A stretch of 64,000 bases of DNA, from positions 1 to 64,000 of IMG/VR virus record IMGVR_UViG_3300047320_000210; one strand, 5' to 3'. Both the position numbers and the translations under genes were made by a program. Of the stretch, positions 1 through 64,000 are shown piece after piece. The DNA comes from a virus. Position 1 is the stretch's first letter, and each line of letters begins with the position of its first letter. The notes beneath the pieces were generated by a model, which was given only the letters and a program-made list of their open reading frames with translations, did no database searches and was not told where the DNA came from.

Positions 1-100
1 GAAAAACCTGATCGACGTCGGGCTCTTTGGCGAACGCCTGCGTTTGCAGCGCCAAATTTTGCTTCTCCTTGTCGGAGATCCTGCCGTAGCAGAATTTCAT
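1..100 (-). CDS. Serine recombinase (resolvase/invertase family), N-terminus only; gene runs off the window edge
   Basis: Not in the ORF track. Manual translation from ATG at 100 gives MKFCYGRISDKEKQNLALQTQAFAKEPDVDQVF, matching the resolvase Y-x-R-x-S...Q-N-L-x-x-Q catalytic N-terminus; RBS AGGAGG upstream. Confidence 0.85.
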   Translation of the reverse strand, partial: MKFCYGRISDKEKQNLALQTQAFAKEPDVDQVF

Positions 101-127
101 AGCTGTACCTCCTAGGAGAGTGGTGGG

Positions 128-295
128 AATTCTCAAAACTCAAGGCAAACGGAAATTTTCTCACAACTCGCGTTTGGGGGGTGGTTTCGAGAAAAGGTTT
201 TGAGAGAGGTATTTGAGAACGGGAAACGCCCGGTTTTTGGGCCGGGCTATTTCCCTCTCAAAATTTCGCAAATGCGACCGTTATTGAGAACGGCC
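128..295. promoter_or_regulatory. Probable res site / resolvase promoter region
   Basis: About seven copies of TTCTCA(A/C)AA / TTGAGA in both orientations (near 130, 158, 186, 198, 212, 255, 284) directly upstream of the resolvase. Confidence 0.55.
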
Positions 296-306
296 AAACG
301 CGGGGT

Positions 307-645
307 TTAGCGCTTTTTGTCGCGCCGGTGGGATTTGCTCATGGCCTTGGCCAACTCCCGGCCAAACGTGCCACGTTGCGCTTTTTTCTCCGCGCGCTGT
401 TTCGCCTGGAGCAGCCCAGGCGCGCGCGGCTGTTGCGCGTTTTCCTCCAGCGCGTGAATCAGTTGCGCTTGCCGAAGTTGGTAAAGCACGCGCGGGATCA
501 AATCGGCCCGGTCGCGCTCGCGATCTGCAAGGTCGGCAGAAAACAGGCTCGCGGGGGACCGGTCGCCGAAGTCGTCGCCCCACATGGATTCCGTCGTGTG
601 GTGTCGTCGCCAGTCACTGGCGCCTGTCGAATCGTCAAAGGCCAT
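307..645 (-). CDS. Hypothetical protein with basic C-terminus
   Basis: ORF 307..681; AGGAGG spaced correctly for ATG at 645. Confidence 0.6.
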   Translation of the reverse strand: MAFDDSTGASDWRRHHTTESMWGDDFGDRSPASLFSADLADRERDRADLIPRVLYQLRQAQLIHALEENAQQPRAPGLLQAKQRAEKKAQRGTFGRELAKAMSKSHRRDKKR

Positions 646-658
646 GGTCATTCCTCCT

Positions 659-678
659 ACGCGCCACATGTGGCGCGT
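659..678. repeat. Perfect palindrome ACGCGCCACATGTGGCGCGT, copy 1 of a 16-bp core
   Basis: Core GCGCCACATGTGGCGC recurs exactly at 1403-1418 and 1656-1671. Confidence 0.9.
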
Positions 679-709
679 CACATGCGCCGAAAAAATCAGG
701 CGCGCACAC

Positions 710-741
710 GAAAGCCCCCCGACTAGCGGGGGGGCGTTTTC
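710..741 (-). terminator. Intrinsic terminator, possibly bidirectional
   Basis: GCCCCCCG-ACTAG-CGGGGGGGC stem with A/T flanks just past the stop of ORF 754..1941. Confidence 0.65.
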
Positions 742-753
742 ACGTCTGGCGGT

Positions 754-1941
754 TTAGCTGTTTTGCGCGTCCAGCTTTGCCGCTGCGCGCGCTGCGTCGT
801 CAGTGGCTTTAGCTTTAATCGCGTTGGCGATAGACAGCGCGCTCAAACTGACGTTTTGCGCCTCCTGCGCCGTCCGGTCACGTTTCGCTTGCTCAGTGGT
901 CACGAATTCGACCATGGCAGACCATGCTGCGCCATCCAGCGCAGCCAACCCCACAAGAGCGCCTTCGGTTGACTTGCCGAAGGCGCCGACGACAGCTTTA
1001 GTCGCTTTTTCGGCAGTGGTCGCGCCCCCCTCAAGATCAACTTCGGAATAGTTGCCGGTCTGCAAATTGACCTTTACGCCATACTTTTTAAGCTGGCGCT
1101 CTATCCGCATGCCGATGGTATTCCGCGCCCCCTTGCAGGCTGCGCTGCGCTGCTTTGCCGTCGCATCGTCGGGCATGCTCTCAAGAGCTTTTTCTTGCGC
1201 TGCTTTTATGGCGATGTTGGCAAGGCCAACATATTCGACCAACAACGGCGCAGAGTCGGCGCAGAGTGGGAAGTCGGCCGCTGTCGGCTCGCCATCCTTG
1301 CCGAATTCGCACAGCTCAAGGTCCAGCAGCACAGCGACAGGGAGAAACATTTTATCGCCCAGCGTCTGCGCCCACTTAACCGCATCTTTTCTATGGGTTG
1401 ACGCGCCACATGTGGCGCCGTGACTGCGTGCACTTTTCACCAACTTGGCAAAGGCGACGTCGTCGGCGCCCCGTTTTTCCGCTTGCTCAACACCGTAGTC
1501 CGACAGCTCTGCCGCCAGCTTGCTTTCGGCGATAGCTGACAAGTCAGGGATAGCAACATCAGCCGTAGCCTTGTATGCGCGCCCCACTGCCGCTGCTTTA
1601 GCTTTGTCGATGGTCACTTTGCTGACAGGCGACAGCTTGCCACCAACATCGACAGGCGCCACATGTGGCGCCGACAGGGTATCGAACTTAGCGCGCAGTG
1701 CTGGCAGAACATCAGCCTCATCTGCCAGCTCTGCAAACAAGGCTGCACAGCCGGTCTCGCCCAGCTTGCCCAGCAAGGCAGCAAGGGGGAGCGGCTCAAG
1801 GCTGCACAGCACAGCGCCTATCTCGCTGCTGTGCAGGCTGCTGAAAGTGTCTTGCAGGCTAGCCCCGTCTGGGCAAGCGGCAAGGGTGGCGGCAAGGTCT
1901 GACAGGCTAGCTGTCTGAGACCACTTGGCTTGACTGTTCAT
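754..1941 (-). CDS. Hypothetical Ala/Lys-rich protein, 395 aa
   Basis: Long ORF with GGGAG RBS; codon usage looks less GC-biased than core genes. Confidence 0.75.
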   Translation of the reverse strand: MNSQAKWSQTASLSDLAATLAACPDGASLQDTFSSLHSSEIGAVLCSLEPLPLAALLGKLGETGCAALFAELADEADVLPALRAKFDTLSAPHVAPVDVGGKLSPVSKVTIDKAKAAAVGRAYKATADVAIPDLSAIAESKLAAELSDYGVEQAEKRGADDVAFAKLVKSARSHGATCGASTHRKDAVKWAQTLGDKMFLPVAVLLDLELCEFGKDGEPTAADFPLCADSAPLLVEYVGLANIAIKAAQEKALESMPDDATAKQRSAACKGARNTIGMRIERQLKKYGVKVNLQTGNYSEVDLEGGATTAEKATKAVVGAFGKSTEGALVGLAALDGAAWSAMVEFVTTEQAKRDRTAQEAQNVSLSALSIANAIKAKATDDAARAAAKLDAQNS

Positions 1942-2066
1942 CTAGTAGCACTCCCGTTGACAGAGAGCGCCAGCTTGCCAATGACATTGTTAGTTACGCC
2001 ACCAACTGCGCCACCTAGGACGACAGCTAGGGCAACGGCGATAAGCACAACGGCAAAGGCTCTCAT
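1938..2066 (-). CDS. Small single-pass membrane peptide, 42 aa
   Basis: AAGGAG RBS; MRAFAVVLIAVALAVVLGGAVGG hydrophobic helix; ATGA overlap with next gene. Confidence 0.6.
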   Translation of the reverse strand: MRAFAVVLIAVALAVVLGGAVGGVTNNVIGKLALSVNGSATR

Positions 2067-2260
2067 GGCTGGGCTCTCCTTAGTGCTGGCAGTGGCAAGG
2101 CGCCATGGCATCAGCAGAACACGCATACATCTGAGAGCAAGCCTAGTCCACCCCATACCGGCACACAAGCATTTTTTAAAAGAGACGCCACCCCCTGACG
2201 CCTGGGCAACACCTGGACGACAGACGCCTGGGCGCAGCCTGGCTAAAGCATGATAAGCAC

Positions 2261-2277
2261 AGCAACAAACGTGCCAG
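2261..2277 (-). promoter_or_regulatory. Sigma54 (RpoN)-type -24/-12 promoter
   Basis: Minus strand reads CTGGCACGTTTGTTGCT, matching TGGCAC-N5-TTGC, in non-coding DNA upstream of the leftward operon. Confidence 0.55.
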
Positions 2278-2786
2278 TATGCAACAAACAAGCCACCCAC
2301 CCCACACTTTTTTCCGACCGACGGACTTGACACACCTCCCTACAGACCCCCTCGCCACCCAGAACCCCCTCAAAATCCCATGGGTACAAAGTACATGAGG
2401 AAATAATCGTGCCAATTAACGCACCACGTTAAAACAATTGCACACCCATACCGGCACACCAAATCACCCCGAAAAGCCCCCCGCCACCGCCGTTCACCCC
2501 CGCCAACCGTGCTACCGTTACCCCCGCGCAGCCCCGGTCAGGTCCCCACGGACGGGTGCCCGACACTCCCCTCGACCGGGGCCGCGCCCTCCCCTTATTT
2601 GCCCCGAAATACCGGCAACCCGCCGCCCTCTTGGAACCGCCCAACGGCCGTGCTACCGTGCCCTCGCGAGGCTCGCAACTTCACCGAGGCAACACGGTGG
2701 TGGCCCGTCCCGAGTGGTCCCGGTCCCGGTGCTCATCCCGTCGCTGGACCGGGCGCCGCTCACCCTCTTTCCGCACGGAGCGCCGC

Positions 2787-6014: not shown

Positions 6015-6638
6015 TCAATCGTCGTCGGCGTTGGGGTCGCCGAGCAACAAATCGCCCTGCTTGGCCCTGGCCTGCTCCAGCTCCAGCTGTTTGGCGGCCT
6101 TGGTCCCGGCGCGCACGTAGTCGTTGACGACGCGCAGGCGATCCCCTTTGTAGAACAGGTTCGGGTTGACCCAGTAGAGGTTTTCGCGGCGCTGCACCGG
6201 GGCCAGAAAGCCTTTCACGCACAGCTCGTTGATGCCGTTGTTGTAGCTGGTCCGCGACTTACTGAATTCATAGTCGAGGTGGATCACGTCGTAGCTGATG
6301 TACATCTGATCCGGCTGGTGTTTCTGTTCCAAGTACACACCGAGGACCGCCCGAAACACGTCCTTGGCCGGCTTGGTCAGCTCGAACACCTCCATGATCC
6401 CGGCGCCGAAGAATTTGATGAATTCTTCCTTGTCGACTATCTTCTGCACCCCGATCACCGCCATGTCGCCCGCGATCTCGCCGGTGTTCTGGTTGATCAG
6501 GGCGTGGCTGGCACTGGCGAAGCCGGTCACCCGGCGGCCTTTCTTGATGGTGTGCACCAGCTCACCGGCCCACGGGTTGTCCCTGACCGCGATCACTTCG
6601 GCGCGGGAGGTGTAATAGCCCTTTTTCTCATCAGTCAC
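6015..6638 (-). CDS. repL: RepL-family plasmid/phage replication initiator (winged HTH)
   Basis: C-terminal TSYNNGINELCVKGFL...YWVNPNLFYKGDR and N-terminal IN.NTGEI, typical of RepL-type proteins. Confidence 0.7.
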   Translation of the reverse strand: MTDEKKGYYTSRAEVIAVRDNPWAGELVHTIKKGRRVTGFASASHALINQNTGEIAGDMAVIGVQKIVDKEEFIKFFGAGIMEVFELTKPAKDVFRAVLGVYLEQKHQPDQMYISYDVIHLDYEFSKSRTSYNNGINELCVKGFLAPVQRRENLYWVNPNLFYKGDRLRVVNDYVRAGTKAAKQLELEQARAKQGDLLLGDPNADDD

Positions 6639-60389: not shown

Positions 60390-61118
60390 TCACTCCTTCT
60401 CAGGTGGGTTCAGCAGACGCAAGATCCAGTGCTCCTTGAACAGCCGGTCGCTCGGGTCTTTGTCAGGGTCTACATCGATGTCGGGGCGCGCCGGCAGGAA
60501 CTGGATGCGTTCCAGTGGCGCGGCCTTGGGGAATTCCAGTTTGAACACTGGGCGTGGCAGGCGCGTCAGCGGGCTGGGTTCCTGCAGGTAGGCGGCGAGC
60601 TGAAACTCGTCGCCGAGCAAGCGCTCGCCGAGGCCCAGGATTTCGTAGGACGGGTACTCGTTGGCGAGGAACACCAGCACCAGCCAGTCCTCGCCCGGCA
60701 GCACGAGGCCGAACAGGTCGGTGAGGATGGTCAGGGTGAATTCGGCTTCGTCCGGTTCCAGCACCACGCCCTCGGGCCAATCCCTGCGCAGGTCGGCCAG
60801 CGGGAACGTGACACGCGACCAGCTGCTGCGGGCCACGGCCTTGAGGGTGTAGGCCGCCCACAGGTCGCCGGCGAAACCAAGGGCCAGGGTCCATTGCCCT
60901 GGTGCCAGTTCCGACAGGCCGACCGACTTCAACCGGCGGCGCGCTTCGGCGTGCAGGATGTAGGTCAGGAAGCCTTCACCGTCGCGGCCGGTGAGCAGTT
61001 CGATCCACTCGTCCGGCTCGGCGGCCTGCGGAAACAGATGGAACGCCCGGCACGGCGACTGCTCGTAGGTGAGCGCCGCGAGGCGGCGCTCTTGTTCGCG
61101 GATCTGTTCAGGTTTCAT
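60390..61118 (-). CDS. Hypothetical protein
   Basis: ATGA-coupled ORF. Confidence 0.7.
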   Translation of the reverse strand: MKPEQIREQERRLAALTYEQSPCRAFHLFPQAAEPDEWIELLTGRDGEGFLTYILHAEARRRLKSVGLSELAPGQWTLALGFAGDLWAAYTLKAVARSSWSRVTFPLADLRRDWPEGVVLEPDEAEFTLTILTDLFGLVLPGEDWLVLVFLANEYPSYEILGLGERLLGDEFQLAAYLQEPSPLTRLPRPVFKLEFPKAAPLERIQFLPARPDIDVDPDKDPSDRLFKEHWILRLLNPPEKE

Positions 61119-61378
61119 AGGCTCTCCAGCAAAACGGGCGCTTCCAACAAGCGCCCGACGTTAAAACTGCGCAGCGCCTTCGCCTCCATGTCCCACACCA
61201 GCAGGTGATCGTCGGGCATGGGGCGACCGGGGCGTCCTCCCGGGGAGGACGGCGGTGGCGGTGGCATGTGAGTGGGGTGCAGCGTGGCCAGCATGGTGCG
61301 CTCGGTGTTGTCGGCTTTGAGGAACACGAGTCGAATGACGCCTTTTTCCAGCAGCGCTCTGAGGTCTTGGGTGTGCAT
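61115..61378 (-). CDS. Stand-alone WYL_2 / Sm-like SH3 beta-barrel protein
   Basis: L..G...L.F.KAD...R.M.ATL...VWD.E....RSF signature. Confidence 0.8.
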   Translation of the reverse strand: MHTQDLRALLEKGVIRLVFLKADNTERTMLATLHPTHMPPPPPSSPGGRPGRPMPDDHLLVWDMEAKALRSFNVGRLLEAPVLLESL

Positions 61379-61530
61379 CGCGGAGGTCTCGCCTACGTTC
61401 CGACTCGGGCGGTCGGATTCATTTGAGCGTAGTCAGCGGTCAGCGATTTCGGATTCGATGCCACACTGTAGGTGGGGCTAGCGCCCTTCCCTCTTTTCAG
61501 CCGCCGCCCACTGCGGGCATGGAGAACGAC

Positions 61531-61755
61531 GTGAGCAACGCACCCACCCCAACCCCTGCCCAACCCCCTGCCCCAGTCAAGAAGACCAAGCCATGGCCGG
61601 AGGCGCACGCCACGAACGGTGCGTGGGAGGCCAACTCCAACACCGGGCGGGCGCACACCTGCATCCAGTTCCTGCAGGCCCACGGCTTCCTCACCGAGGG
61701 CCAGGCCGAAACGCTGCGCACCCAGGTGGTGGAGCGCAGCGCCGACGCCGGCTAG
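61531..61755 (+). CDS. Small hypothetical protein, opposite to its neighbours
   Basis: GGAG RBS with GTG start; FLQAHGFLTEGQA motif. Confidence 0.55.
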   Translation: MSNAPTPTPAQPPAPVKKTKPWPEAHATNGAWEANSNTGRAHTCIQFLQAHGFLTEGQAETLRTQVVERSADAG

Positions 61756-61991
61756 GGTTTGCCATCGCGCTGGGCGGTCCCGCCCAGCGCATACCACGTC
61801 ATCAGGTTACCGCTGGCGTCCGTGGGCCACTCGGGGTGTTCCTCGTGGCCGCTGGGGGCCGTGAACTCCATGCAGTCTTCGTCCGGGCAGTGTTCGCCCG
61901 AGGGCGAGTGACAGTCGCGGGTCGGTTCCTGCCACGCGTTACCGCACGCCTCGCACAGGAACATCCGATAGCCCGGGGTCAGGCGTCTCAT
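61752..61991 (-). CDS. Small zinc-ribbon protein
   Basis: CEAC...C...CPDEDC. Confidence 0.6.
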   Translation of the reverse strand: MRRLTPGYRMFLCEACGNAWQEPTRDCHSPSGEHCPDEDCMEFTAPSGHEEHPEWPTDASGNLMTWYALGGTAQRDGKP

Positions 61992-62004
61992 GACCCGCAC
62001 TTCG

Positions 62005-62451
62005 TCAGGTAGCTGTCCGTTTCCATTTGCGTCGGGGCTCCTTGAAGATGGTGCTCGGGCACCAAAACGGCGCCCGCTTGGGTTTAGGGAAGCGCAGGTA
62101 ACGATCATGCTCGCGCAGCGCGTCGTAGCGCTGCAGGCGGTCGGCATACGCCTGCACCGTTTCGACCACGTCCTTGTGCCCGGCTTCCGCTTCGGCCCAG
62201 GTGCAGTAGCGCACCATTTCTTCGTTGAGAAACCCGCCGCCGAAGACCATGGTTTCAAACAACACCGGCGGATGGTTGGGGCCGTACCAGTTGTGGTCCA
62301 TGCTGAGAAAGACCGTACTGATTTCCGCCCTGCCGACGAAGTCCTTGGCCACACGGCGGTCGGCCTTCTGATACCAGTTGGCCCACTCCATCAAGTCGAA
62401 GACCTGCACCGGCGTCTGCCCGTCGAGGATGTATTTATCTTCAACGCGCAT
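62005..62451 (-). CDS. Conserved phage hypothetical protein
   Basis: ISTVFL..DH...P..FETMVFGG...RY.TW.EA..GH. Confidence 0.8.
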   Translation of the reverse strand: MRVEDKYILDGQTPVQVFDLMEWANWYQKADRRVAKDFVGRAEISTVFLSMDHNWYGPNHPPVLFETMVFGGGFLNEEMVRYCTWAEAEAGHKDVVETVQAYADRLQRYDALREHDRYLRFPKPKRAPFWCPSTIFKEPRRKWKRTAT

Positions 62452-62455
62452 GGGG

Positions 62456-62830
62456 TTAGATCGGCTTCGCCCAAGTCAGGACGGTCTTCAAACCGAACTG
62501 CTCGATCCAGCCCTTGATGGTGAGGTGATCGCGGCGGCCGGAGTCAACCACGTCGCCGCTGTGCGGGTTGGTCCAGCGTTTCATCTTGCCCACATGCGCC
62601 TTGCCTTTAGGCGCGCTCGACTTCTCGGCGGCCTTGATCGCCATCTGCTGCCCGTGCATGAAGGCGTACAGCTTGTCCTTGGACATCGAGTATTTAGACA
62701 GCAGGTCTTCCAGCTCGGCGTCGAATTCCAGTTCGCGTTTCAGCTCAGGATCATTCCTGAGTTCTTCGACGGCGGTAACTTGTTTGGCCAGCGCCAATTG
62801 CGCGGCTTTAAACTCGGCGATCTTGAACAT
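62456..62830 (-). CDS. MvaT-family (H-NS-like) nucleoid protein
   Basis: L.ND.EL..ELEF...L..LL.KY and NPHSG.V...H...K.W...G...V..W. Confidence 0.9.
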   Translation of the reverse strand: MFKIAEFKAAQLALAKQVTAVEELRNDPELKRELEFDAELEDLLSKYSMSKDKLYAFMHGQQMAIKAAEKSSAPKGKAHVGKMKRWTNPHSGDVVDSGRRDHLTIKGWIEQFGLKTVLTWAKPI

Positions 62831-62876
62831 CTGTACTTCCTTAGTGGGGTAATTTCAACGGTTCAGCAGGTGGAAC

Positions 62877-63263
62877 TTAGGCCTGTAGCCACGACTGCAC
62901 GACGTCTTCGCCGTAGGTCTCGACCCACAGTTTGTAGGTGCCGTGGCTCAGGCGTTTGATCGTCAGCACGTCGCCGGTGTGGGGGTTGAGGAACGTCTTT
63001 GCGTCCTCGGGACCAGTCGCGCGAGTCGCCTTAGTCTTGCTGGCGACCGGCTTCTTGTAGAAGTCCGAGGTGATGTCCGCTTTCAAGAACAGCTGCAGCT
63101 TGACCTTGTTCATCGAGTGCTGCGCAAGGAAGTCGTCCAGGGCCACGTCGAAGGCTATCTCTTTCTGCAGTTGCGGGTCTTGCTTGAGGGCTTCGAGGTA
63201 GGTGTACTTCTGAGCAAGTTGCAGTTCGAGTTCGCGGTACTGTTCAATAGCTAACATAGGCAT
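62877..63263 (-). CDS. MvaT-family nucleoid protein, second paralogue
   Basis: YRELE.QL...LK.D..L.KEI.F and NPHTG.V...YG..VV.SW. Confidence 0.9.
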   Translation of the reverse strand: MPMLAIEQYRELELQLAQKYTYLEALKQDPQLQKEIAFDVALDDFLAQHSMNKVKLQLFLKADITSDFYKKPVASKTKATRATGPEDAKTFLNPHTGDVLTIKRLSHGTYKLWVETYGEDVVQSWLQA

Positions 63264-63325
63264 GTCCTTATTATTAAAAGAATATGGGCAGCTAAGAAGC
63301 TGCCCGGCACGCAGACTACACGAAG

Positions 63326-63940
63326 TTAAATCTCGCGAGCATATTCTTTGCGGGTGATGGCGATGGTTTCGATAACACGTAAGCCGTACTCGCGGGCCTT
63401 ACGGCCTGCCGCTAGTTCGGCTTCTAAGGTATTGATACCGGGGTCACAGTGATAGAACGGAATTAGCGTGCCATCAGCACGCGCCACCTGTAGCACCACT
63501 TCGATCTGCCGCTTGATTAGCGTGGCGTGGTGTTTGGTTTTAGGGCGCGTGAAGGCCGCTTCGGCTGTTTCTAACGGCGGCTTGGCTTTAAGCGGGGTTT
63601 TCTTCTTAACGACAACGGGAGCAGGTTCAGCGGGGGTTGTATCTAAGCCCCAGTCGCGCCGCAGTTGCGCTGCGAGGTCGTCTAACTCGGCCCGCTGTTG
63701 GGCGGCGGCGGTTAGCGGGGACGGGTCTGAACTGTTGAACGTTATCTGATCTAGGGTAGACGCTTGAAGCAAGGCCAGCTGGGCTTGTTGTTCAGCTAAT
63801 TTGCGCTTGGCTTCTTTCTTCTTGGATACAAAGGGGCGGTGCTTGGGCTCGGGCTCTACGATGATTGACGCTAACACACTGCGTATGCCGGCCTCTGTGT
63901 TAGCCAGTCTGCTAAATCCTGATGATGTATTCAAAGCCAT
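63326..63940 (-). CDS. Hypothetical protein
   Basis: AAGGA RBS; visibly lower-GC codon usage. Confidence 0.7.
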   Translation of the reverse strand: MALNTSSGFSRLANTEAGIRSVLASIIVEPEPKHRPFVSKKKEAKRKLAEQQAQLALLQASTLDQITFNSSDPSPLTAAAQQRAELDDLAAQLRRDWGLDTTPAEPAPVVVKKKTPLKAKPPLETAEAAFTRPKTKHHATLIKRQIEVVLQVARADGTLIPFYHCDPGINTLEAELAAGRKAREYGLRVIETIAITRKEYAREI

Positions 63941-64000
63941 TCGTCTAGTCCTTTTCTTCTTCGAGTGTTAGGGCGTCCTGCAGCGCATAAACTGCCAACA

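Follow-up and report, generated by a model that had tools for sequence, protein, structure and literature searches.

Do the MvaT-type proteins encoded by a phage assist the silencing system of the host, poison it, or read a different kind of DNA altogether? This question is raised by two adjacent genes, here designated A and B, which lie near the end of a 64,000-nucleotide stretch of viral DNA (referred to as the window), corresponding to the first 64 kb of the 83,921-bp IMG/VR virus record IMGVR_UViG_3300047320_000210, rated 100% complete by CheckV. A previous interpretation made from the letters alone (the sequence-only reading) had described the products as MvaT paralogues with degenerate DNA-contact motifs, acting either as dominant-negative counter-silencers or as silencers with altered specificity. 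Our analysis favours an altered reading head: A and B would constitute a phage-specific pair within the MvaT family, still oligomerising and still binding DNA, which would be contacted through loop arginines instead of R80 and the GGN motif. We regard this explanation as evenly poised between right and wrong, and the two proteins look like working variants, not broken copies. The genes are located as follows:

62456-62830, minus strand: gene A, MvaT/MvaU family, loop GRRDH, 124 amino acids, 46 nt downstream of B
62877-63257, minus strand: gene B, MvaT/MvaU family, loop KRLSH, 126 amino acids from the likely ATG start

The open frame of gene B runs on to 63263 (128 amino acids); its start is most likely the ATG at 63257, because an AAGGA motif lies 7 nt upstream, at the spacing found in all relatives, and the recorded gene call is also of 126 amino acids. 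The presence of two adjacent minus-strand members of the MvaT family was confirmed by the open reading frames and by matches in three family collections. Against the MvaT/MvaU model of NCBIfam (NF041859, cut-off 75 bits), A scored 86.0 bits (E 2e-24) and B 75.2 bits (E 5e-21, with the 128-residue frame), the latter being a borderline member, with 74.3 bits in a six-frame search. The Pfam domain MvaT_DBD (PF22055, gathering score 27) was matched by B with 30.6 bits and by A with 25.6 bits (below that score, E 1.2e-5), and both proteins matched PHROG 34034, a family of unknown function. Among known structures, A resembled the TurB N-domain (8h8h, E 2e-7) and MvaT's DNA-binding domain (2mxe, E 1.6e-5), and B resembled 2mxe (E 3.3e-5), with a match to the TurB N-domain at E 0.1 only; a profile of the A family raised these similarities to E 4e-11 for the TurB N-domain and E 9e-11 for the MvaT C-domain.

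The predicted products are therefore classified as full-length MvaT-type proteins of the H-NS family, with a family match far beyond chance. In both, an acidic coiled-coil domain at the N-terminus is followed by a basic linker and by a C-terminal domain of the MvaT type. The net charges of the three parts of A are -3, +3 and +4, compared with -2, +4 and +4 in P0067, an MvaT of the P. aeruginosa type (96% identity to the P. paraeruginosa MvaT); the linker of B carries +4, and its C-domain -2 in this phage and 0 to +2 in its orthologues. Residues F36, D27, E33, N87, P88, W107 and W119 of MvaT are retained in A and B, as are all the fold-defining positions (N87, P88, W107, G112, V116 and W119, in MvaT numbering).

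In MvaT, DNA is reported to be held by an AT-pincer made of R80 and G99-N100, and by a lysine network comprising K81, K83, K97, K102, K105 and K108 (Ding et al., 2015, PMC4466236). According to the mutant data of that work, R80A and K108A lower binding more than 10-fold, N100A and K105A more than 3-fold, and R80A, K83A, N100A, K105A and K108A each leave cupA unrepressed (PMC4466236). The pincer and lysine residues are described as highly conserved across MvaT homologues (Duan et al., 2021, PMC8476142). The corresponding positions of A and B were located by a MAFFT alignment with P0067:

62525-62539, minus strand: G98-R99-R100-D101-H102 of A, opposite K97-G98-G99-N100-H101 of MvaT in the alignment (AT-pincer loop 2)
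62943-62957, minus strand: K101-R102-L103-S104-H105 of B, aligned with MvaT K97 to H101
62588-62590, minus strand: G81 of A, at the position of the groove-inserting R80 of MvaT
63006-63008, minus strand: E84 of B, at the position of MvaT R80

The alignment agrees with the sequence-only reading in that GRRDH (in A) and KRLSH (in B) stand in place of the KGGNH loop. The AT-pincer (R80, G99, N100) is absent from both proteins, being replaced by G, R and D in A, and by E, L and S in B. Along the lysine network (K81, K83, K97, K102, K105, K108), A reads K, K, G, L, K and I, and B reads D, K, K, G, K and V, three of the six lysines being present in each. Thus, K83 and K105 are kept in both proteins, and R80, N100 and K108 (I in A, V in B) are missing from both. 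Both carry an arginine at MvaT position 98, and A a second one at position 99. The claim that the basic stretch before NPH has been replaced stands in part: VGKMKRWT in A and PEDAKTFL in B differ from ARKVKQYK in MvaT, but A has lost R80 alone, with K81, K83 and an extra arginine present.

The term degenerate, which the sequence-only reading applied to these motifs, was not borne out by their conservation. A word-indexed search of 5.8 billion proteins yielded 37 A-type proteins (A included, from 48 candidates) and 6 B-type proteins (B included, from 21 candidates), all metagenomic, and several of them encoded on contigs of 81-83 kb. Each of the residues S97, R99, R100, D101 and H102 of A recurs in 90% or more of the 37 rows, at identities to A that go down to ~36%, and KRLSH occurs in all six B-type database proteins, at identities down to 40%. 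In addition, six loci were identified when the A alignment was used for a pattern scan of IMG/VR; five of them carry B followed by A in tandem, ~40 bp apart, and the sixth carries a single gene with the loop RMATN. The five B genes from these viral loci all display KRL[S/T][H/N], as do the 11 B-type proteins overall.

Both genes are under purifying selection, with ratios of nonsynonymous to synonymous substitution rates (dN/dS) of 0.13-0.32 in 10 of 10 pairwise comparisons (Nei-Gojobori method, five related loci). The selected parts differ between the two: in B, the proportion of nonsynonymous differences (pN) is 0.15-0.25 in the C-domain versus 0.43-0.50 in the N-domain (four distant comparisons, with loci L004-L007), and in A the order is reversed, with 0.16 in the N-domain versus 0.27-0.37 in the C-domain (three of the distant comparisons). 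The capsid protein is 82-93% identical across four larger records (G001-G004), each with two matches to the family; across the same records the identity is 53-61% for A and 36-44% for B, values far below those of the capsid, and therefore the pair evolves much faster than the capsid, still under purifying selection. No truncated relative of 30-67 amino acids, resembling H-NST, was found in the search. The conserved loops, the purifying selection, the better-conserved C-domain of B, the basic linker kept in both proteins, the C-domain net charge of A (equal to that of MvaT) and the lack of truncated forms together speak against degeneration and favour an altered reading head. Decay into pseudogenes, considered separately, was ruled out by the open frames, the dN/dS values and the conserved loops.

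The claim of intact oligomerisation domains is fair for A and weak for B, as judged by alignment. Terminal dimerisation of TurB is reported to involve L4, A5, F7, A10, A13, L14, M18, L21, L24, G29, L30 and I34, together with the charged residues R3, R8, D27, E33 and E37 (Vasileva et al., 2026, PMC13141940). In a gap-free alignment, A displays the same or a similar residue at 11 of the 12 hydrophobic positions (G29 being replaced by E), and the charge is kept at all five charged positions. Conversely, B has the same or a similar residue at 7 of 12 hydrophobic positions, with changes A5E, A10L, A13Q, M18Y and G29Q, and keeps the charge at 4 of 5 salt-bridge positions (R3 lost; R8, D27, E33 and D37 kept), in line with its poor match to TurB. 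The first helix of the distant B orthologues (L004-L007) is canonical-looking, and therefore its remodelling is specific to the subgroup of this phage, within which the remodelled N-domain is conserved (pN 0.12 versus a proportion of synonymous differences, pS, of 0.51, in comparison with L003).

To place the pair within the family, 1.84 billion representatives were searched exhaustively with a profile, and 575 proteins were retrieved at E<=1e-3; of 181 proteins with lengths of 105-160 amino acids, the first 150 entered the family alignments. Residues were counted in the 130 of the best 150 representatives that were in register, the other 20 having been dropped for a length outside 105-160 amino acids or for lacking an NPx...W frame. 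G99-N100 is present in 50 of the 130, of which 47 also have R80 and 48 have K or R at position 108; among the 80 representatives with other loops, R80 is found in 33 and K/R108 in 35. Further, R80 accompanies G98 in 63 of 71 representatives, and R98 in 1 of 16. A quick tree inferred by maximum likelihood joins the A and B lineages in one clade of 23 rows (support of 76 in the Shimodaira-Hasegawa-like approximate likelihood ratio test, SH-aLRT), nested in a set of 30 rows supported at 99. The loops of the A lineage are of the form xRRDH, with neighbours KR[K/V/I]DH, and those of the B lineage are KRL[S/T]H and KLVTH. At the level of sequence, these data show that the pair arose by an old duplication, its two genes staying side by side under purifying selection. 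The ten non-canonical representatives closest to it are all of metagenomic origin, and are named no further than 'hypothetical protein'. Separately, two metagenome proteins, P0036 and P0045, seemingly from one 64,558-bp contig, carry the loops KAHNH and KRLTH, and could represent an intermediate form of the A/B pair.

Among 41 canonical representatives, the median pairwise identity is 0.31 for the N-domain (5th-95th percentile 0.21-0.47) and 0.56 for the C-domain (0.44-0.68). The identities of the A- and B-type proteins to these canonical members are 0.26-0.33 (N-domain) and 0.34-0.39 (C-domain). Their N-domains are ordinary for the family and their C-domains lie outside the canonical range, which upholds the earlier view of MvaT-like N-terminal halves joined to deviant C-domains.

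With the integration of these findings, a working model can be outlined. A would form oligomers by a near-canonical interface, and B with its remodelled first helix; heteromers of A and B are probable, and mixing with host MvaT-type proteins may perhaps occur. The minor groove would be bound by arginines carried on the loop, changing affinity or sequence preference. The likely task of such a pair would be to organise or repress selected DNA, either the AT-rich control regions of the element itself or AT-rich islands of the host, a role resembling that of plasmid-borne MvaT and H-NS homologues, with a different reading head. A bolder version, which we consider unlikely, holds that the two proteins constitute a phage-specific two-subunit chromatin system with a new reading mode in the H-NS superfamily, in which the arginine at R80 has moved into loop 2 (R98, and also R99 in A), conferring a different preference for sequence or shape.

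Several observations weigh against a changed but functional reading head. Since A and B lack three of the four residues whose replacement lowers MvaT binding (R80, N100 and K108, with K105 kept), they can fairly be expected to bind DNA weakly or not at all. The aspartate of A at the N100 position is an odd residue for the minor groove, and the C-domain of B has a negative net charge in this phage. As to the coupled loss of R80 and gain of R98, an independent-pairs test had five usable pairs on supported branches and was not significant (sign-test p 0.5-1), and therefore the moved arginine is still hypothetical. The SH-aLRT support for the A and B clade is only moderate, and no sigma-70-like promoter was found in 61000-64000.

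The genomic context of the pair bears on the competing explanations. Tailed-phage genes for a large terminase, portal, major head protein, tail protein, DNA polymerase, primase and helicases were identified in the record. Its first 2,438 bases (window 1-2438) are a direct repeat of the last 2,437 (record 81485-83921), with 89.7% identity, which gives a unit genome of ~81.5 kb; the two ends are probably strain variants joined by the assembler, the genome itself being circular or terminally redundant. Plasmid-type and associated genes were found beyond the window, at the following positions of the record:

64993-65907, minus strand: DNA methyltransferase
67965-68201, minus strand: open reading frame of 78 amino acids, after the ParA gene
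68194-68940, minus strand: ParA-type ATPase
75882-76400, minus strand: PF03230 antirestriction protein
80345-81079, minus strand: serine resolvase with a helix-turn-helix

ParA is kept at 62-64% identity in three of the four records of the capsid clade, the fourth record being only 58% complete. No integrase was seen among the 49 scanned open reading frames of ~118 in a crude list, and the frame at 6015-6638, a RepL candidate, matched no family in a Pfam scan. The combination of ParA, resolvase and antirestriction genes with virion genes makes a phage-plasmid plausible, if unproven. The genome has a guanine-cytosine (GC) content of 62.9%, with 13 short AT-rich islands, one of which (63155-63390) extends from the 5' end of B into the 3' end of the neighbouring gene orf204. 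The deepest island, at record 79941-80353 (GC 0.28 in 120 bp), adjoins the resolvase gene, and is a candidate res site, origin or centromere.

The closest terminases are those of Pseudomonas phages Lana and PMBT3 (32% identity), and the two sequencing runs that hold most of the stretch are rhizosphere metagenomes; together with the GC content, this suggests, without constituting proof, a soil Pseudomonas as host. The carriers of the pair are a family of ~82-kb tailed phages of soil and rhizosphere, most likely with Pseudomonas as host. An assembly artefact was ruled out, as one 13.9-kb contig of run X1, possibly the source sample of the record, covers 61500-64000 with 4 differences. Near-identical pieces of the same region were found in run X2, and diverged relatives in runs X3 and X9; no RNA run was listed among the holders of the stretch.

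Outside the A/B clade, the family is present in 61 of 61 Pseudomonas genomes, with 177 matches, of which the best 150 all score at least 166.7 bits, compared with 86 and 75 for A and B. KGGNH, R80 and K108 occur together in 29 of the 30 best-scoring chromosomal loci and in 78 of the 80 loci found with P0067, both sets leaning to canonical copies as they consist of best-scoring loci. Relatives of A were also found on 98 plasmids of PLSDB, 94 of them from Pseudomonas, the best being 38% identical, and two plasmid homologues that were examined have R80, KGGNH and K108 intact. In a 51-kb P. aeruginosa record labelled as a 'non-mobilizable plasmid' (NZ_CP129996.1, 13262-21612), a canonical MvaT homologue has HigA, RelE/ParE-CopG and AcrF1 genes as its neighbours, and many similar records of 41-56 kb are found among the plasmids with MvaT relatives.

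A search for prophage copies in 185,579 species genomes detected no A-type relative, none of its 66 pattern matches having been confirmed, with the proviso that two peptide patterns were used and distant copies could escape them. A blastn search of the pair against 50,697 GenBank phage records returned nothing, and tblastn searches with A and with B returned the same two UNVERIFIED faecal scaffolds, both with the canonical KGGNH and one with an in-frame stop; these searches indicate that no cultured phage in that collection carries the A/B clade. The latter scaffold, MT835634.1 ('Bacteriophage sp.'), contains an MvaT-like frame with KGGNH at 201-575, interrupted at codon 17, which may be bacterial DNA or a broken copy.

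Three other explanations were weighed against a changed reading head. The first is the counter-silencing role put forward by the sequence-only reading; of its two alternatives, altered specificity is the one favoured by our results, and the dominant-negative one, for which our data provided no positive evidence, is regarded as doubtful. According to it, A and/or B would co-polymerise with host MvaT/MvaU filaments through the N-domain and loosen the silencing of phage or other AT-rich DNA, either because DNA is held poorly or differently by their C-domains, or through capping of the filament by the remodelled helix of B. The absence of R80, N100 and K108 from both proteins is consistent with this, as single alanine changes at these positions are reported to inactivate MvaT (PMC4466236), and so are the near-canonical dimerisation residues of A (11/12 hydrophobic, 5/5 charged), the N-domain being its most conserved part (pN 0.16 versus 0.27-0.37). 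The N-domain identities of 0.26-0.33 fall within the canonical range (0.21-0.47), and the equally divergent TurA, TurB and Pmr are reported to form heteromers (PMC13141940). The first helix of B, changed at A5E, A10L, A13Q and M18Y, would agree with capping, and phages are known to target MvaT, as described for Mip of phage LUZ24 (PMC4635203). However, a pure poison needs no C-domain, yet both proteins are full-length, with lineage-invariant loops and, in B, a C-domain that is the best-conserved part; the search returned no truncated relatives; and a genome of 62.9% GC with only 13 short AT-rich islands is no obvious target of xenogeneic silencing.

The second explanation, which we find quite improbable, is that A and B are back-up 'stealth' MvaT homologues, binding the same AT-rich DNA as host MvaT and topping up the silencer pool, as proposed for Pmr and Sfh, which provide a precedent (PMC7074111). 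The plasmid-type genes of the genome (ParA, resolvase and PF03230 antirestriction), the retention of ParA in three of four clade records at 62-64% identity, and the MvaT homologues on 98 PLSDB plasmids (94 from Pseudomonas) all point in its direction. Nonetheless, the two plasmid homologues keep R80, KGGNH and K108, unlike A and B; the scores of A (86 bits) and B (75 bits) stand far from the at least 166.7 bits of the best 150 of 177 chromosomal matches; the C-domain identities (0.34-0.39) fall below the canonical 5th percentile of 0.44; and a single back-up protein would be enough, yet a pair is conserved.

The third, a C-domain re-purposed for protein, RNA or modified DNA on an N-domain that multimerises, is the weakest and seems very improbable, since the fold-defining residues and basic linker are kept, arginine-rich loops are typical of minor-groove binders (RGR and QGR being described in Lsr2 and H-NS, PMC8476142) and no candidate ligand was identified, even though the DNA-contact residues are lost in favour of new invariant surfaces (S-x-R-R-D-H in A, K-R-L-S-H-G-x-Y in B), the C-domain of B is near neutral, and orf204 is kept beside an MvaT-like gene in two unrelated phage types.

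Three features adjoin the two genes:

63326-63940, minus strand: orf204, upstream neighbour of gene B, kept beside the MvaT-like gene(s)
63286-63305, minus strand: hairpin resembling a terminator, with a T-rich tail, in the gap from orf204 to B and directly followed by the ribosome-binding site of B
62005-62451, minus strand: orf148, which starts 4 nt past the stop codon of A

The gene order orf185, orf103, orf204, B, A, followed by a WYL_2 gene and orf242, is common to L003-L007, an orf204 homologue being located directly upstream of the MvaT-like gene(s) in all of them. Another homologue (positions 482-1111 of L008; 30% identity, E 4e-15) precedes the single MvaT-like gene of the 37.7-kb record L008, in which no match to the capsid of the present phage was found. 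Being kept in two unrelated phage types, orf204 may be a functional partner of the MvaT-like genes. Its product had no match in Pfam, PHROG, PADLOC or PDB, and in the Atlas it matched unnamed viral clusters only. The stem of the hairpin is kept in L003-L007 with changes on both arms, and may attenuate read-through into the B-A genes. As for orf148, a homologue follows A in two of five related loci (L004 and L006), and Pfam, NCBIfam, PHROG and PADLOC scans gave no family match. For A, B and four neighbouring genes, no match was obtained with PADLOC, which covers defence systems. Farther downstream, an 87-amino-acid protein (61115-61378, minus strand) consists of a WYL_2 (Sm-like SH3) domain alone (Pfam, 34.8 bits), and is present in all five related loci with 68-72% identity.

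If the bolder two-subunit proposal holds, such a phage or phage-plasmid could tag the control regions of its genome, or defence islands of the host, separately from host MvaT; A and B could also enter host MvaT filaments, redirecting them or capping them through the remodelled first helix of B. MvaT is presented as the only xenogeneic silencer with an experimental structure of its DNA complex (PMC8476142), and a natural conserved lineage in which exactly the MvaT contact residues are swapped and the fold is kept would constitute a test of how the reading head relates to DNA preference. The locus also offers a way to learn how host silencing is coped with or exploited by a large phage of the Pseudomonas type, which is perhaps a phage-plasmid, and, should A and B mix with the filaments of the host, they would provide a natural means of perturbing MvaT/MvaU silencing. 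Further, they are possibly the first case of MvaT-type proteins carried by phages, no description of a phage-encoded member of the family having been found in searches of open-access papers and bioRxiv.

Compared with known systems, A and B share with MvaT and MvaU of P. aeruginosa, and with TurA and TurB of P. putida (PDB 2MXE/2MXF, 5B52, 8H8H), a length of ~120-126 amino acids and two domains joined by a basic linker; they differ in that R80, G98, G99, N100 and K108 are all replaced, and in forming a tandem phage-encoded pair. H-NST, Mip of LUZ24 and gp5.5 of T7 are mobile-element proteins directed against host silencer filaments, and A and B could act likewise. Neither Mip nor gp5.5 is, to our knowledge, related to A or B in sequence. 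H-NST is described as devoid of a DNA-binding domain (PMC7074111), whereas A and B are full-length proteins with a C-domain.

The closest parallel among mobile elements is Pmr of plasmid pCAR1, also an MvaT-family gene on a large element with Pseudomonas-type hosts, and partition and resolution genes are present here too. Pmr is reported to act by hetero-oligomerisation with its host paralogues (PMC13141940; PMC7074111). Unlike Pmr-type plasmid copies, the present element has terminase, portal and capsid genes, and the contact residues of A and B are changed. Phage copies of silencers have been reported for H-NS (phage EPV1), Lsr2 (mycobacteriophages) and CgpS (prophage CGP3), the proposed roles being to silence defence loci of the host or the genes of the phage itself (PMC7074111; PMC3097231). 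In its treatment of such copies, a 2020 review names phage homologues of H-NS and Lsr2 only, and locates MvaT copies on pCAR1 and genomic islands (PMC7074111). A and B resemble these phage proteins in being full-length copies of a host-type silencer, and differ from them in belonging to another silencer family, in being two paralogues and in their changed contact residues. Finally, a precedent for subgroups defined by the minor-groove contact motif within one fold is provided by H-NS and Bv3F, with QGR and RGR motifs, respectively, and DNA preferences that are expected to differ (PMC8476142). That split concerns chromosomal H-NS of the enterobacterial type, whereas A and B represent a phage-linked split inside the MvaT type.

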